From assembly GCA_934101795.1 (NCBI GenBank), contig CAKORY010000001.1:76878-140877 (forward strand): DNA of 64,000 nucleotides. The letters run 5' to 3'. Made by a program: the position numbers and the translations under genes. Below the pieces are notes generated by a model. It was given only the letters and a program-made list of their open reading frames with translations. It was not told where the DNA came from and did no database searches. Of this stretch, positions 18,066 to 46,500 are shown one piece after another (position 1 is the first letter of the stretch; each line of letters starts with the position of its first letter). The DNA comes from an uncultured Bacilli bacterium. Its GTDB lineage: Bacteria > Bacillota_I > Bacilli_A > RF39 > UBA660.

Positions 18066-18401
18066 GTGATATTTTTGTATAATGATCGATTATATTTAAC
18101 TCCTCAAGAAATACTTGAGAAAGAATTTAAGATTGATGCCAGGGGATATCGACCTCAAGAAGTTGATAAGTTTTTGGATATGGTTATCCGTGATTATACG
18201 GAATATGCAAATATTATTAGAAAGTTAGAAAAAGATGTAAAAGATTTAACTGATGATAATATTAAGTTAAAACAAGAGATAAGAAGACTTCAAGAAGTAG
18301 CTAGTACAAGTAGTGAAGCGCCTTCAAGAAGCACAAATAATGTTGATTTACTTAAAAGAATTAGTCAACTTGAAAAAGTAGTTTACGGAAATAATGAATA
18401 A
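18066..18401 (+). CDS. gpsB: cell-cycle protein GpsB (DivIVA-domain)
   Basis: A DivIVA N-terminal domain (LTPQEILEKEFKIDARGYRPQEVDKFLDMVIRDY) and the approximately 110-aa size. It sits immediately upstream of rnpB, as in B. subtilis. Confidence 0.8.
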   Translation: MIFLYNDRLYLTPQEILEKEFKIDARGYRPQEVDKFLDMVIRDYTEYANIIRKLEKDVKDLTDDNIKLKQEIRRLQEVASTSSEAPSRSTNNVDLLKRISQLEKVVYGNNE

Positions 18402-18745
18402 TCTAGTGGCAAATGCTGCATAAGATAGTTATGTAGAGGAAAGTCCATGCTCGCACAGGCTGAGATGTCTGTAGTGTTTGTGCTTAGGAAAAAAATAACC
18501 TAAGAAAGCGAAAGTTTATGGCTTCGAGGAAACCTTAAATGGTTTTATTAGATATAAAAGTGCCAAAGAGACGAGCTACAAGGGAAACTTTGTAGGTGGA
18601 ACGTGGTAAACCCCGCAAGCGAGAAACCCAAATTATGGTAGGGGAGCTTAAAGTAAAGAAATGAATTTGCTTTGGGTGCAGAAATGTAAGATAAATATTT
18701 GCCTCTTCTTTATGAAGAACAAAACATGGCTTATTAAGATTATTT
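18395..18745 (+). ncRNA. rnpB: RNase P RNA (bacterial type B)
   Basis: Conserved blocks GTAGAGGAAAGTCCATGCTCGCAC, GGAACGTGGTAAACCCC..AAGCGAGAAACCCAAATTATGGTAGGGGA and AACAAAACATGGCTTA match Bacillus rnpB. P1 forms between AATAATCT (about 18393-18400) and AGATTATT (about 18737-18744). Confidence 0.9.
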
Positions 18746-19860: not shown

Positions 19861-19879
19861 TGCTTCGGCACTTTTTTTG
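19859..19879 (+). terminator. rho-independent terminator after pgsA (GTGC-TTCG-GCAC plus T7)
   Basis: gtgcttcggcacttttttt, a tetraloop hairpin followed by a T-run. Confidence 0.75.
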
Positions 19880-20111
19880 TTATAAGCAAATTTTCATAAG
19901 AATTATAAAACTAATAGTTAAATAGTTGCTAAAAATAAATATGTATATACTTGTATATACATATTTTTTATTTGATTATTATAAATTTTATAAAGTGGCT
20001 TAAATTTCTTGTTTTTGAAACTGTTTAGTAATATAATTAATTTATGGAACATCCTGTTTGATTGGATGCTACCTCTTTTAAAGTTTTGGAACTGAAAGAG
20101 AGGTGATGTTA

Positions 20112-20195
20112 ATGAACATAAAGAATTTGTTTATTCTTATGTTGTTCTTCATCATAGTATGTTTGCTAATAATTGTTTTTGTATTAGCAATCTAA
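20112..20195 (+). CDS. candidate type I toxin: 27-aa hydrophobic peptide
   Basis: The peptide is MNIKNLFILMLFFIIVCLLIIVFVLAI, a single TM. A strong RBS (agagaggtga) is present. In the mRNA, the 5' UTR segments GGAACATCC (20046-54) and GATTGGATGCTACC (20060-73) are perfectly complementary to the 3' UTR segments GGTAGCATCCAATC (20246-59) and GGATGTTCC (20271-79). Confidence 0.5.
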   Translation: MNIKNLFILMLFFIIVCLLIIVFVLAI

Positions 20196-20290
20196 CAAAA
20201 AGCATCTAAATCAACGAGGTTGATTTAGATGCCATCCACATTATTGGTAGCATCCAATCTCGCTAAAAACCGGATGTTCCATTTTTTTAT
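20196..20290 (-). ncRNA. candidate antisense antitoxin sRNA, convergent and overlapping the 3' UTR of the toxin mRNA
   Basis: Read on the minus strand, the perfect hairpin GCATCTAAATCAAC-CTCG-TTGATTTAGATGC (20202-20232) is followed by UUUUUGUU, which is an intrinsic terminator only in that orientation. A TATAAT-like element lies near 20300 on the minus strand. Confidence 0.4.
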
Positions 20291-20408
20291 TATATGCAAA
20301 TTTTCTTTGCTAAATACATAATAACATAAATGTGGCTAAAAGTCAAATTTAAAAATATAAAAATTTTTCTGTTTTTATGTTATAATGAAACTATAAGGAG
20401 CAAAATAT

Positions 20409-20813
20409 ATGAAAATATTTATTATATGCAGTAAAGCATTTTATGATAAAATACCACCAATTAAGAGTGCACTAGAAAAAGCGGGACATATAATATCATT
20501 ACCTAATTGTTATGATTGTCCTGAAACAGAAAGTAAATATCGTGGCACAGATGAACATGCTAAGTGGAAAGCTGGAATGATTAAACATAGTGAAGAAGTT
20601 ATTTCTGGAGTTGATGCTGTGCTTGTTTTAAATTATGCTAAAAATGGCATTCAAAATTATATCGGAGGTGCAACATTTCTAGAAATGTATGATGCTTTTA
20701 GATTAGAAAAAACAATATATATGATAAATGATATACCAGATGGTTTATTGAAAGATGAGATTATTGGCTTTAATCCAATTATTTTAAATGGAGATTTAAA
20801 TAAATTAGTTTAA
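20409..20813 (+). CDS. nucleoside 2-deoxyribosyltransferase-like fold protein (putative)
   Basis: KIFIICSKAFYD ... VDAVLVLNYAKNG..GGATFLEMYDAF loosely resembles the PF05014-type Rossmann-like family. The assignment is weak. Confidence 0.3.
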   Translation: MKIFIICSKAFYDKIPPIKSALEKAGHIISLPNCYDCPETESKYRGTDEHAKWKAGMIKHSEEVISGVDAVLVLNYAKNGIQNYIGGATFLEMYDAFRLEKTIYMINDIPDGLLKDEIIGFNPIILNGDLNKLV

Positions 20814-43546: not shown

Positions 43547-46500
43547 GTGAAGAAGATGAATTTGACTCCTGAACAAAGTTTGGCTGTTAATTTGGAAGGA
43601 AAAAATATTATAGTATCTGCGGGTGCAGGTTCTGGTAAAACTGCAGTATTATCAGAAAGAGTGATTAGAAAACTTAAAGATGGCGTAGATATTAGAAATA
43701 TTTTAATGTTAACATTTACTAATGAAGCTGCCGGAGAAATGGCTGATAGAATTAGAAAAAAAATAAAAAAAGCTGGTTTAAAAGAGCAACTTGAATATTT
43801 AGATCAAGCATATATTACTACATTTGATGCATTTGCCTTAAATTTAGTTAAAAAGTATCATTATGTTCTTAACATGAGTAAAGATATTAGTATAATTGAT
43901 GCATCAATTATTAATTTGAAAAGAAAAGAATTTTTAGAAGAAATATTCGAAGAATTTTATGAAAGTAAAAATGAATTATTTTTAAAATTAATCGAAGACT
44001 TTACTAATAGAGATGATGAATTAATAAAAAATGCTGTTCTTTCTATTAATAGATTACTTGATTTAAAATATGATAAATATGATTATTTAAATAATTATGT
44101 AAATAATTATTATAGTGATGAATATGTAAATAACTCTTTTGATGAATACTTTAAATATGTTAAAACCCTTTCTGATACATTAGAAAGTAAAATACTTGAA
44201 ATAGAAAGCTACATGGATAGTAGTTCTTATGAAAAGATATATAATAGTGTATCTAATTTATTTAATCCTAAGTCTTATAATGATTTATATAAGTATAAAG
44301 ATTGTACTTTAGGTAAGTTTACTAAATTAGATGAAGAAGGTATATCTTTAAAAGAAGAAATACAAAATACATATAAAACTATATCTGATTTAATATTTTA
44401 TAGTGAGGATGAGTTAAAAAAAGATTATTTAAGTACTAAAGATTATGTTAAAATAATAATAGAAATTATATATAAATTAGATGATAAAATAAATGCTTTT
44501 AAGAAAGAATTTGATTCTTATGAATTTACAGATATAGCTAAAATGGCTATTAAAATAGTTGAAGAAAATGAAAGTATTAGGGAAGAACTTAAAAGTAAGT
44601 TTAATGAAATAATGATTGATGAATATCAAGATACAAGTGATTTACAAGAAACATTTATTAAATATTTAGAAAATGATAATGTTTATATGGTCGGAGATAT
44701 AAAACAATCTATTTATAGATTTAGAAATGCTAATCCTTTAATATTTAAAAATAAATATGATAAATATAGTAATCATGATGGCGGTGTAAAAATAGATTTA
44801 CTTAAAAACTTTAGGTCAAGAGAAGAAGTTTTATTTAATATTAATGAAATATTTGCTCGCCTTATGACTAAAGAACTCGGGGGTATTAATTATAAAGAAA
44901 GTCACGCTATGATATTTGGTAATGAGGCTTATGTTACTCTTGGTGCTAATAATAACAATAATTATATGGGTATATATACTTATAATAATGAGGATAAAAA
45001 GTATTCAAATGATGAAATTGAAGCTTTTATAATAGCAAATGATATTAAGAATAAAATTGCTGAGGATTATGAAGTATATGATTTTGATTTAGGAAAAAAT
45101 CGAAAAGCAAACTATAATGATTTTTGTATTATACTTGATCGTGGTAGTAAAATGAATTTATTTAAGAAAGTATTTGAGTACTTTAGTATACCAATGGAAA
45201 TATATAAAGATAGTAATTTAATGGAAGAAAATGATATTTATATTATTAAAAATATTATTAATTTATGCTTTTCTATTAAAAATGAAGTTTATGATAAAAA
45301 GTTTAGATATTATTTTACTAGTGTTGCTAGAAGTTATGTCGGAGGCTTAAATGATGCTGAAATATTTAATGATTTAGAAAATAATGGTATATTTAGAAGT
45401 GAAGTATTTAGAATATGTAAAGAAATAAGTAAAGAAATAGATCTTTTGACTCCGAATATGCTTTTAAAAAGAATAATTGATGATTTTAATTTTTATGAAA
45501 AATTTATTCTAGTGGGTAATGTTGATGCTGGTATAAAGAGAATGAATTATTTACTTGAGTTGTCTCTTAATATTGAAAATCTAGGTTTTACATGTGAAGA
45601 CTTTAGTAAGTATCTTGAAGACTTAGCAACCTCTAATAGTGAGATTAAATATAAAGAAGCTAAATCAAGTAGTATATCTGTTAAAATGATGAATATTCAT
45701 AAATCTAAAGGTCTTGAATTTCCAATATGTTATTTTACTGGTTTTCCTAAAACATTTAATTTAAGTGATTTAAAAAATAAATTTATGTTTGATAATAAGT
45801 ATGGTATTATAACACCATATTATAAAGATGGTATTGGTGAAGTATTTATTAAACAACTTGTTAAAAATGAGTATTATTTAAATGAAGTGGCAGAAAAGGT
45901 AAGATTATTTTATGTAGCACTTACAAGAAGTAAAGAAAAGATTATTATGGTAATGCCTGAGGTAAAGGATAAAACTAGAGCATGTGAAGAAGTAGACTTT
46001 CTAGAGGGATTAAGTTTTAGATCATTTTATAACTTTTTAGAAAGTATATATGGCAATATTGAAAAATATGTAACAAGCATTAATTTAAATAATATTGGTT
46101 TATCTAAAGAATATGAATTTAGCAAAGTAATAAGTAGAAATTTAGAAAGTAAAAAAGAAGAAATGGTCATATATGATGATGAAGTTTTATATGAAGAAGT
46201 AGAAAAGAAACATGCTTCTAAAACTATAAAAAGTATTTTAACTAAAGAAGAAGCTAAGACTTTAGAATTTGGTACATATATGCATGAAATATTTGAATTA
46301 ACTGATTTTAAAAATATAGAAACTGATAATAAGTATATAAATAAGTTATTAGATAGCTTTGATTTTAAAAATGCAGAAATATATCAAGAACTAGAGTTTA
46401 TATTTATAAAAGATGATATTAAATATCATGGTATTATAGATTTAATGCTTGAATATAGTGATAAAATATATATTGTGGATTATAAACTTAAAAATATTGA

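Follow-up and report, generated by a model that had tools for sequence, protein, structure and literature searches.

[quoted passage not shown] An excerpt of PMC12390103 places them so far only in Proteobacteria, Firmicutes and Tenericutes, and the 24 families in T1TAdb come from genomes in which such systems had already been reported (PMC8594479, which also summarises the family layouts). Where the antitoxin overlaps the toxin mRNA at its 3' end, it recruits RNase III, and SR4 also closes the ribosome binding site (RBS) (PMC5848175). The AapA1 and hok mRNAs are held by a long-distance 5'-3' interaction, the AapA1 mRNA being 253 nt long (PMC5416894).

The locus described here lies at positions 20040-20295, 3' of pgsA, in a window from an uncultured human-gut Bacilli bacterium, the window being the whole 64-kb stretch of DNA that was analysed. 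Judged from its sequence, we consider it probable, if far from assured, that the locus is a chromosomal type I TA-like module, lineage-restricted and previously undescribed, with transcripts and toxicity that are predicted. The original prediction had proposed such a system, and our analyses support it: every feature expected at the sequence level was found, namely a hydrophobic ORF, a strong Shine-Dalgarno (SD) sequence, a hairpin that sequesters it, a 5'-3' clamp and a convergent antisense unit. On the best reading, the design would combine a clamp of the hok/AapA1 type with a 3' overlap of the RatA/SR4 type. With the txpA/RatA, bsrG/SR4, bsrE/SR5 and yonT/SR6 pairs of Bacillus subtilis the locus shares a Firmicute host, convergent genes and an antisense RNA of ~100 nt that would pair with the 3' end of an mRNA encoding a short hydrophobic peptide, and RNase III cleavage of the duplex would be the expected outcome here as well. 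Unlike these pairs, with which it has no sequence or covariance-model similarity (a comparison of low power for a 27-aa peptide), the locus is not on a prophage but at a fixed housekeeping site.

The gene upstream is a CDP-alcohol phosphatidyltransferase of the pgsA type (PF01066), as had been proposed, and the neighbours are housekeeping envelope genes (PBP, recU, gpsB-like, rodZ-like and pgsA). An AT-rich palindrome at 19931-19972 (inverted repeat I2), with a 13-bp stem and an A-run and a T-run at its flanks, is conserved in every strain as well as in L014 and L017. Its fold z-scores are -2.6 (plus strand) and -4.4 (minus strand), and it may serve as a bidirectional terminator or insulate the toxin promoter from pgsA. 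Copies of the locus were found in a few closely related species, a narrow clade whose close relatives lack it, and within the reach of the contigs every retrieved copy occupies a single chromosomal site. No second copy was found in the 64-kb window using tblastn and blastn, and there was no match to the locus in viral contigs (pattern scan) or in plasmids and phages (blastn), nor to the peptide in plasmids (tblastn). A structure-aware scan of 90 related loci and the window returned a small hydrophobic ORF with flanking inverted repeats at this locus alone. Another small hydrophobic candidate, the ORF at 44931-45032, was dismissed as lying out of frame within a 1027-aa gene. Homologues of p134 (~80% identity) occur in other contexts, and the module is absent there. 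The metagenome copy L097 is missing the inner 3' clamp arm. In L094, likewise a metagenome copy, the terminator hairpin is replaced; a compensating terminator was at first suspected, yet the terminator scan calls none.

The putative toxin ORF (20112-20195, plus strand) has 27 codons and encodes MNIKNLFILMLFFIIVCLLIIVFVLAI, a single-helix peptide in which 24 of the 27 residues are hydrophobic. It stands behind the SD GAGAGGTGAT (20098-20107), with 8 nt between the GAGG core and the ATG, which confirms the proposed 27-codon, almost purely hydrophobic ORF behind a strong RBS. An exhaustive phmmer search of 1.84 billion proteins with a 30-aa GTG-start version of the peptide gave no match, and the type I toxin models of Pfam-A and NCBIfam gave none at E <= 10, a search of low power with a 27-aa peptide; the absence of a Pfam match sets the peptide apart from the Hok_Gef and AapA families. 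In Rfam 15 nothing reached the gathering score and no T1TA antitoxin family was among the weak matches at E <= 10, so that the covariance-model search suggested in the original prediction linked the locus to no known toxin or antitoxin family. The peptide also has no charged C-terminal tail of the kind common among the Fst, Ldr, TxpA and BsrG toxins. Such a tail is likewise missing from the Ibs and ShoB peptides of E. coli, which are very short and consist almost wholly of hydrophobic residues; the peptide here has no sequence match to either. The layouts differ too, since Sib extends over the entire ibs ORF, and OhsC is transcribed divergently and does not overlap the mRNA (PMC8594479).

Three deeply divergent alleles of the ORF were found: MSIKDLFILILFFIIVCLLIIVFVLAI in many strains, MNAKDIFILIEFCIIIYLLIIITLLLIIK in L014 and MNLKDIVIITQFIIIICLLVLSFILAI in L106. 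Start, frame, length (27-29 codons) and hydrophobicity are kept in all three, the RNA elements are conserved, and the ORF, its ATG and an invariant strong SD at 8-nt spacing are present in 14 of 14 distinct sequences. Nucleotide identity between the window and L014 is 59% in the CDS, 93% in the UTRs and 94-97% in the flanking genes, with CDS differences distributed 11/6/16 over the codon positions. For the conservation test that the original prediction set itself, the outcome is mixed: the peptide sequence is poorly conserved beside its flanks, and what is maintained is the ORF with its start, frame, length and hydrophobic character. In simulations of random divergence, the ORF and its hydrophobicity were jointly retained in 0.6% of trials (p ~ 0.006), which makes maintenance of the ORF across alleles appear unlikely under unconstrained divergence.

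The putative toxin promoter (20009-20037, plus strand) was read from the sequence and consists of a -35 element TTGTTT (20009-14), a 17-nt spacer and a perfect -10 element TATAAT (20032-37); the +1 would then be A20044, with which the clamp begins. Across all copies the -10 is invariant and the -35 reads TTGYTT. The -35 is poor, and a consensus scan does not call the promoter because this element matches at just 3 of 6 positions. The predicted toxin mRNA is ~245 nt long (20044-20288, plus strand) and would end in the U-run at 20282-88. Its 5' clamp arms (20044-20073) are the outer arm ATGGAACATCC (20044-20054) and the inner arm GATTGGATGCTACC (20060-20073), and the 3' arms (20246-20288 with the U-run that follows them) are the inner arm GGTAGCATCCAATC (20246-20259) and the outer arm GGATGTTCCAT (20272-20282). 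The complementarity is perfect, as claimed, with 11 of 11 outer and 14 of 14 inner pairs. A perfect inverted repeat of at least 14 nt did not arise in 300 shuffles of the region and was present in one of 386 tiles of the 64-kb window, namely this locus. Folding of the plus-strand RNA (246 nt), which the original prediction had recommended, gave a strong structure with the clamp and a minimum free energy of -89.4 to -90 kcal/mol, where shuffled sequences gave -45.6 +/- 4.9 (z = -8.9) and none of 200 did as well. Alternatively, the 5' clamp arms can form a local hairpin, UGG.CAUCC...GGAUG.CC.

Among the 29 clamp pairs in the 14 distinct sequences, 23 are invariant, five show a one-sided change that still pairs (one of these is also an A.C mismatch in four sequences) and one is lost, in L106 only. 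The commonest allele has one clamp pair as an A.C mismatch, and in L106 the four substitutions in the 5' arms all allow wobble pairing with 3' arms that have not changed. Folding of the homologous L014 and L106 RNAs, from the two divergent alleles, yields this clamp again (z = -10.9 and -8.9, respectively). Over the 14 sequences, 96.7% of cells are paired in the toxin mRNA structure, which had itself been derived from one of the aligned sequences, and there is little covariation: just four pairs change on both sides, a count reached by 35 of 500 shuffles. The covariation is weak because the copies are close relatives. A hairpin within the CDS (helix 6) has two both-sided changes.

Folding also predicts an anti-SD/SD hairpin (20072-20107, plus strand) in which CCUCUUUU pairs with AAAGAGAGG and thereby holds the SD GAGAGGUGAU. 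The SD is sequestered in the nascent, full-length and antisense-masked models, and its bases have an unpaired probability of at most 0.09 in all modelled states, with the sole exception of G20102 (0.33 in the clamped form versus 0.01 with the 3' UTR masked). The SD does not open in the fold models once the 3' region of the mRNA is removed or masked. Since it is buried in every modelled state, no activation route is evident.

On the minus strand, our scan found a promoter that is absent from the original description (promoter A, 20346-20318), with TTGACT, a 17-nt spacer and an extended -10, TGnTATTAT; it matches at 10 of 12 positions and is invariant in all copies. Inverted repeat I6 and the terminator scan identify a hairpin at 20201-20233 of 14-15 perfect bp, an intrinsic terminator on the minus strand followed by UUUUUGUU; read on the plus strand, the same hairpin is a 3'-UTR stem-loop with no U-run. 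A minus-strand terminator had been proposed at this place and is present (stem 20233-20201, 15 pairs, plus TTTTGTT). All the sequence features listed in the original prediction were found, some of them at positions shifted by 1-2 nt. Three terminator-like sites were observed in the region where 0.2 are expected, and the minus-strand promoter and terminator are invariant among the 14 distinct locus sequences.

From promoter, terminator and fold, we predict an antisense sRNA, the antitoxin candidate, at 20193-20317 on the minus strand. Its parts are a 5' hairpin (GCAAA..UUUGC), an A-rich linker, a second hairpin closed by UGG..CCA and the terminator, and it folds with z = -5.8 and -5.6. Its predicted length is ~119-125 nt from promoter A or 90 nt from an alternative -10 at 20294-89. 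A convergent RNA with a terminator is thus predicted as proposed, at a length of probably ~120 nt and not ~90 nt if the best promoter is used. The possible alternative -10, TATAAT (20289-20294, minus strand), is part of the 29-nt inverted repeat I1 (arms 20031-20059 and 20267-20295), which includes the toxin -10 as well. It has no good -35. Initiation there would put the antisense 5' end at A20282, with AUGGAACAUCC as in the toxin mRNA.

At the sequence level, the antisense RNA overlaps the toxin 3' UTR perfectly over ~96 nt, which is the whole 3' UTR with both 3' clamp arms, and the overlap that had been claimed is in this respect borne out. The overlap halts at the stop codon (U-run 20200-20193, TAA 20193-95) and leaves the body of the ORF uncovered. 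The resemblance to the RatA/SR4-style arrangement is partial: the convergent overlap is on the 3' side, and it lacks the reach into the ORF that those families have (PMC8594479). Outside the overlap, the best duplex of the antisense RNA with the toxin 5' UTR and CDS (-37.3 kcal/mol) was not above chance when compared with shuffled antisense sequences (-36.6 +/- 4.8 kcal/mol). This distinguishes the locus from fst RNAI/RNAII (par) and sprA1/SprA1as, whose functional pairing takes place at the toxin translation-initiation region and not within the overlap; these systems are otherwise similar in being Gram-positive and convergent with an overlap in 3' non-coding sequence and not in the ORF (PMC8594479). 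With hok/Sok and aapA1/IsoA1 the locus shares a full-length mRNA of ~250 nt locked by pairing of the 5' UTR with the extreme 3' end, with the SD sequestered. In those systems, however, the antisense targets the 5' region and 3' processing activates the mRNA, whereas here the antisense covers the 3' arms.

Members of the sRNA family that includes the antisense RNA are also found, toxin-free, in more distant relatives. Homologues with promoter and terminator are present at the TA-less loci L020, L019 and L043; those of L020 and L043 have their own promoter and a non-homologous terminator, and the L020 promoter, at the homologous position, reads TTGAAA-17-TGnTATAAT (11 of 12 matches). The stem of hairpin 2 is retained despite altered sequence, with G.U pairs that are valid on the sRNA strand only. 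Hairpin 2 was judged from individual folds, RNAalifold on a MAFFT alignment having missed it with the alignment out of register. An Rfam search of the stand-alone sRNA loci gave sub-threshold noise only. A vestige of a second sRNA gene copy lies directly after the pgsA terminator (19868-19895, minus strand; nhmmer 19895-19868, E = 0.017). It is the left member of direct repeat D1 (19872-19895 versus 20282-20305, 92% identical), with the toxin cassette in between, and at the same position a fuller copy of ~70 nt occurs in L017 (E ~ 4e-15), L008 (1e-12), L108 and L109. The corresponding site in L019 carries an inserted IS605-type TnpB gene. The 5' part of the sRNA recurs, inverted, as the toxin promoter and 5' end. 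We found no description of a clamp built from a copy of the antitoxin 5' end for txpA/RatA, bsrG/SR4, bsrE/SR5 or yonT/SR6 in a limited literature search.

These elements suggest how the module may work. The toxin SD would be held by the local anti-SD hairpin as soon as it is transcribed. Once the 3' end emerges, the first 30 nt of the mRNA would pair with the last ~40 nt, in a clamp that would double as the stem preceding the terminator U-run, and the clamped mRNA would be compact, probably stable and poorly translated. From the minus strand, a strong promoter would give the sRNA of ~90-125 nt, ending at the 15-bp terminator exactly at the toxin stop codon. Because its 5' part is the same sequence as the toxin 5' end, the sRNA would compete with that end for the 3' arms. 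Its binding would create a duplex of ~90 bp, a likely RNase III substrate as for RatA, SR4, SR5 and SR6, and would free the toxin 5' end, so that C20072-73 could rejoin the anti-SD helix and close the SD fully. This predicted tightening of the SD helix parallels the second function of SR4 (PMC5848175, PMC8594479). No RNase III signature motif was found in a search that covered the 64-kb window. The sRNA may have another primary role, since it occurs toxin-free in other species.

Three other explanations were weighed. The peptide could be harmless, a small membrane protein under cis-antisense control that serves a membrane complex as an accessory subunit or a regulator. The housekeeping envelope genes around it would suit such a role, as would the lack of a charged tail, of a homologue among the 1.84 billion proteins and of a matching toxin family model, and its toxicity is itself a prediction. 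We nevertheless think this explanation unlikely, since triple repression by an anti-SD hairpin, a clamp and a fully complementary antisense is characteristic of toxin mRNAs and seldom seen with small proteins that do no harm (PMC8594479, PMC5416894). Its sequence also evolves far faster than the genome background with hydrophobicity alone kept, a poor fit with a specific protein partner, and its presence in a narrow clade and absence from close relatives argue in the same direction. The hypervariable ORF amid conserved RNA elements raises the further prospect that both transcripts are non-coding, an sRNA with a trans function and, as its cis-antisense partner, a plus-strand sponge or decoy that bears a copy of the sRNA 5' part, with the ORF fortuitous. 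The sRNA family standing alone in L019, L020 and L043 is in keeping with this, as is helix 6 with its both-sided changes inside the CDS. It would, however, leave the dedicated anti-SD hairpin without a purpose, and it fits poorly with an ORF, ATG and spaced SD that persist through all 14 sequences and three deep alleles, with the bias over codon positions, and with a frame and hydrophobicity whose joint retention is improbable by chance; we regard it as more doubtful still.

The repeats raise the question whether the locus is what remains of a small mobile element (MITE- or IS-derived) and has no function in the cell. The 29-nt terminal inverted repeats (20031-59 and 20267-95), the direct repeats of 24 to ~70 nt that flank the cassette and the TnpB gene at the L019 site would all be explained in this way. 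The flanking direct repeats, however, are sRNA gene copies and not short target-site duplications, the locus is single-copy in the window, its retrieved copies share one site to the limits of their contigs, and none was found in viral contigs, plasmids or phages. With promoters, SD and terminators intact and conserved in addition, a mobile relic seems very improbable. The type I TA-like module remains the reading that we prefer.

For this module, the repeats allow a tentative proposal, one that we consider possible but would not favour: that a type I TA module arose here recently out of an sRNA gene that already existed. In this scenario, the gene of an ancestral, independently functional sRNA, which is found by itself in relatives down to 68% pgsA identity, would have been duplicated, leaving direct copies on both sides of the cassette. 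Its -10 and first ~50 nt would also have been copied in inverted orientation, giving a new peptide mRNA its promoter and 5' UTR. The 5'-3' clamp would have come automatically with this event, and so would an antitoxin mimicking the toxin 5' end. The peptide core would since have behaved as a hypervariable cassette, with three alleles ~40% divergent in genomes that are ~95% identical. Such divergence would suggest that the toxin is under diversifying or balancing selection or that its alleles are exchanged.

If the reading is true, the locus would represent a new, sequence-orphan type I family in an uncultured, reduced-genome lineage of human-gut Bacilli, in which two regulatory designs normally found in separate families, the 5'-3' clamp and the 3'-overlapping antitoxin, are joined. 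That the toxin core is hypervariable and its RNA scaffold conserved poses the question of what selects on the peptide. With an antitoxin that has free-standing sRNA kin and a toxin 5' UTR that repeats the sRNA in inverted form, the locus may also give a rare view of the origin of such a module.

The original prediction of a hydrophobic 27-codon ORF behind a strong ribosome-binding site was borne out: the ORF is present on the plus strand at 20112-20195 (peptide MNIKNLFILMLFFIIVCLLIIVFVLAI), and its Shine-Dalgarno (SD) sequence, GAGAGGTGAT at 20098-20107, has a GAGG core 8 nt upstream. The perfect -10 box of the putative toxin gene (TATAAT, 20032-37, +), with TTGTTT 17 nt upstream, predicts a +1 at A20044, which is the first base of the 5'-3' clamp, and a U-run (20282-88, +) directly follows the clamp's final base. 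This pairing would thus connect both extreme ends of a ~245-nt transcript and also serve as the stem ahead of its terminator U-run. In the predicted fold, the SD is buried by pairing of the anti-SD sequence CCUCUUUU (20072-79, +), located between clamp and ORF, with AAAGAGAGG. A perfect hairpin at 20202-20232 can form on both strands; it is a 3'-UTR stem-loop on the plus strand, since no U-run is present there, and the terminator on the minus strand.

The proposed perfect complementarity of the 5' and 3' UTRs was recovered by a repeat finder as a 14-nt inverted repeat without a mismatch (20060-20073 with 20246-20259) and a 29-nt inverted repeat of 83% (20031-20059 with 20267-20295), the core of which is the perfect 11-mer pair ATGGAACATCC / GGATGTTCCAT. 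Perfect inverted repeats of at least 14 nt occurred in 0 of 300 shuffles of the region and in 1 of 386 tiles of the 64-kb window, that one being this locus. Folding of the plus transcript gave -89.4 kcal/mol for RNA 20045-20290, compared to -45.6 +/- 4.9 in dinucleotide shuffles (z = -8.9), and the same clamp was found in the predicted folds of the RNAs from two divergent loci, L014 (z = -10.9) and L106 (z = -8.9). Across 14 distinct sequences, standard pairs fill 96.7% of the cells of the window MFE structure (36-47% with partners slid), a value expected to be inflated since the structure was derived from one of the aligned sequences. Of the 29 clamp pairs, 23 are invariant and five vary on one side with pairing kept, one of these five being also an A.C mismatch in four sequences. 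Both-sided changes affect 4 pairs in the entire structure, a number also reached in 35 of 500 shuffles. The most telling case for the clamp is L106, with four substitutions in the 5' arms: C>U faces G at two sites and A>G faces U at the other two, and all still pair with unchanged 3' arms. The modeled toxin-mRNA structure is therefore consistent and far beyond chance, yet covariation gives no proof of it. In the L106 counterpart of the 20202-20232 hairpin (L106:258-288), two substitutions give G.U pairs on the toxin strand and A.C mismatches on the antisense strand, a hint of selection acting on the plus-strand 3'-UTR stem-loop itself. Lesions are seen in two metagenome copies: a ~19-nt deletion in L097:3277-3502 (-) removes most of the inner 3' clamp arm together with the linker, and in L094:1170-1433 (+) the antisense terminator hairpin has given way to an unrelated GC-rich segment, which the scan does not call as a terminator. 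These may be decaying copies or assembly errors.

On the minus strand, where a hairpin terminator had been proposed, the pattern scan indeed calls one (stem 20233-20201, 15 pairs, tail TTTTGTT), together with promoter A (TTGACT-17-TGnTATTAT, 20346-20318). The antisense RNA predicted from these features runs from ~20311-17 to ~20193 (-). Its fold (z = -5.8) begins with a small 5' hairpin, followed by an A-rich linker, a second hairpin with UGG..CCA at its closing end, and the terminator. Because the 29-nt inverted repeat takes in the toxin -10 box, a second minus-strand TATAAT lies inside it at 20294-89; an antisense RNA started from this box would begin with AUGGAACAUCC, as the toxin mRNA does. 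From either start the RNA includes AUGGAACAUCC...GAUUGGAUGCUACC, which nearly duplicates the 5' end of the toxin mRNA and complements its 3' arms exactly. The second antisense hairpin contains four G.U pairs that become C.A mismatches on the plus strand, so that a stable local hairpin is expected in the antisense RNA only, and the mRNA 3' arms are left free for the 5' end.

Constrained folding was used to model regulation. The SD came out paired in all three states modeled: nascent, full-length, and with 20193-20283 masked as if antisense-bound. With the clamp closed, C20072-73 are paired to the 3' arm and the SD base G20102 is unpaired with a probability of 0.33; with the 3' UTR masked, C20072-73 enter the anti-SD helix and this value falls to 0.01. 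In this model, antisense binding would free C20072-73 for the anti-SD helix and close the SD further. The predicted tightening parallels SR4, which recruits RNase III and also changes the RNA structure so that the bsrG RBS is obstructed further (PMC5848175). RNase III acts on the duplexes of RatA, SR4, SR5 and SR6 (PMC5848175), and by analogy the ~90-bp perfect toxin/antisense duplex would be a substrate. No activating rearrangement of the toxin mRNA appeared in the folding models, which leaves a gap in the explanation. Complementarity between the two RNAs outside the overlap did not exceed chance, so an Fst- or SprA1-type interaction is unsupported.

In layout, the locus is closest to the Gram-positive 3'-overlap families TxpA/RatA, BsrG/SR4, BsrE/SR5 and YonT/SR6. 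The convergent overlap lies on the 3' side, in line with the RatA/SR4-style arrangement originally proposed; it spares the ORF, as in Fst/RNAII and SprA1/SprA1as (PMC8594479). In mRNA folding the nearest systems are hok and AapA1, whose 5'-3' interaction the clamp resembles; they differ in having the antisense RNA at the 5' end and in activating translation by 3' processing (PMC5416894). Neither sequence nor profile places the locus in any of these families. The search with type I covariance models suggested by the original prediction returned nothing from Rfam 15 at the gathering score and, down to E <= 10, no type I antitoxin family, a meaningful negative since Rfam is stated to include antitoxin RNAs of 13 type I families (PMC8594479). 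The peptide matched no known family in Pfam-A or NCBIfam at E <= 10 and nothing by phmmer among 1.84 billion proteins, searches that have little power at 27 aa.

Many metagenome contigs from the human gut encode the exact pgsA protein. The genome records closest in pgsA belong to uncultured MAGs, which are labeled Bacilli, Tenericutes or Erysipelotrichaceae; Firmicutes CAG:460 and Clostridium CAG:609 are relatives. The GC content of the window is 25.7%. The module occupies a constant site (pgsA - module - 134-aa ORF - tkt) in 10 strain contigs, five species representatives with pgsA of at least 94% identity (L011-L014, L017), seven metagenome contigs and three further contigs. It is missing downstream of pgsA in representatives with pgsA at or below 91% identity and upstream of 134-aa-ORF homologues at ~80% identity, and no similar sequence turned up in viral contigs, plasmids or phages. 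The 134-aa ORF (20409-20813, +) lies immediately downstream, divergent from the antisense promoter, and has more than 2,500 metagenome homologues with no Pfam family or informative name. A conserved AT-rich perfect palindrome with A-run and T-run flanks (ATATGTATATAC..GTATATACATAT, 19931-19972) lies after pgsA and ahead of the toxin promoter; it could act as a bidirectional terminator or bind a protein. Further upstream, a bacterial RNase P RNA class B (18400-18738, +; 257 bits) lies between gpsB-like and rodZ-like genes. In two contigs (L108:2-520, L109:1-80) a DUF5050 protein gene rather than pgsA precedes the module, with the same last codons and terminator as pgsA; this junction reflects either chimeric assembly or rearrangement at the 3' end of pgsA.

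Most module copies are close relatives, and two are deep alleles, L014 (MNAKDIFILIEFCIIIYLLIIITLLLIIK) and L106 (MNLKDIVIITQFIIIICLLVLSFILAI). The three toxin CDSs (window 20112-20192, L014:2090-2179 and L106:170-253) show ~40% nucleotide divergence in surrounding genomes that are 93-97% identical. Between the window and L014, UTRs and promoters are 93% identical (118/127 and 140/150), equal to the genome background; identity in the flanking genes is 94-97%, and synonymous changes affect 6-15% of their codons for conserved amino acids. In the CDS, identity is only 59%: of 27 residues 12 are replaced, 10 of the 15 codons for conserved residues carry synonymous changes, and there are 11, 6 and 16 differences at codon positions 1, 2 and 3. 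Random change of the same amount left the frame open in 18% of simulated trials, and open with hydrophobicity at least that of L014 in 0.6%. The ATG and SD are invariant across the 14 distinct sequences except for one G>T in L092. A peptide ORF unconserved between kept flanks had been named as evidence against the proposal; the peptide sequence is indeed poorly conserved, but the ORF and its hydrophobicity are kept. From these comparisons we conclude that the ORF is selected to encode some hydrophobic helix rather than a specific sequence. Relaxed constraint does not explain a CDS divergence exceeding the neutral background; this excess points to diversifying selection, exchange of alleles or old (balanced) alleles. 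The L106 locus is a mosaic of the same kind, with near identity from the outer 3' arm on and divergence concentrated from the promoter spacer to the inner 3' arm. The product may instead be a benign small membrane protein regulated by the antisense RNA. Two non-coding RNAs with a merely fortuitous ORF are disfavored, since the ORF is maintained and the SD and anti-SD are invariant. A MITE-like relic is disfavored too, as there is one copy in the 64-kb window and every copy retrieved sits at this chromosomal site, within the reach of the contigs.

A stretch of ~48 nt on the right of the terminator of the toxin mRNA (20284-20331) was found again in three toxin-less species, each with a stand-alone sRNA locus lacking the toxin ORF opposite: L020:4642-4778 (-), directly after pgsA; L019:6000-6153 (-), after a TnpB insertion; and L043:7566-7712 (+), after rpoZ and a tRNA, where pgsA is only 68% identical. 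These ~100-110-nt genes are homologous to the window antisense RNA. Each is a minus-sense unit with a promoter at the homologous position (in L020, TTGAAA-17-TGnTATAAT, 11/12 matches), the conserved 5' sequence GUAUUUAGCAAAG.AAUUUGCAUA.AAUAAAAA, a GG..CC-closed hairpin and a terminator differing in every lineage. The hairpin stem, from the base outward, reads ACAUCCGG / UUGGAUGcU in the window, ACACUUGA / UUGAGUGU in L019 and ACAUUCAG / UUGAAUGU in L043; its sequence varies among lineages with pairing kept, through U-A to C-G and C-G to U-A exchanges. No further members were found by nhmmer in about 0.8 Mb of related loci, and the stand-alone loci had no match in Rfam. The 5' hairpin of the family (window 20300-20315, minus strand GCAAAGAAAATTTGC) is sequence-invariant in distant homologues without covariation, and so could equally be a DNA operator (GCAAA-N5-TTTGC); a second, inverted ATTTGCAT lies ~50 nt off, across the promoter, in L019 and L020. 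The L019 insertion (L019:4673-5869), between the pgsA terminator and the sRNA gene, is an IS605-type TnpB gene (OrfB_IS605 and Cas12f1-like TNB domains).

L017, L008, L108 and L109 carry another copy of the sRNA gene, ~70 nt long, after the pgsA terminator and before the toxin cassette, and the window retains a 24-28-nt vestige of it (19868-19895), so that the cassette is framed by direct copies of the sRNA gene. The toxin promoter and 5' UTR repeat the sRNA -10 and 5' part in inverted orientation. The simplest history suggested by these sequences is that the sRNA is older and the toxin mRNA was put together around its copies; alternatively, the toxin was lost repeatedly. We propose the locus as a candidate new type I toxin-antitoxin family whose regulatory design is hybrid and whose toxin core is hypervariable, its antitoxin candidate apparently drawn from a free-standing sRNA family. 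Type I systems are well known as a kind; the origin story and the allele pattern are what is unusual here.
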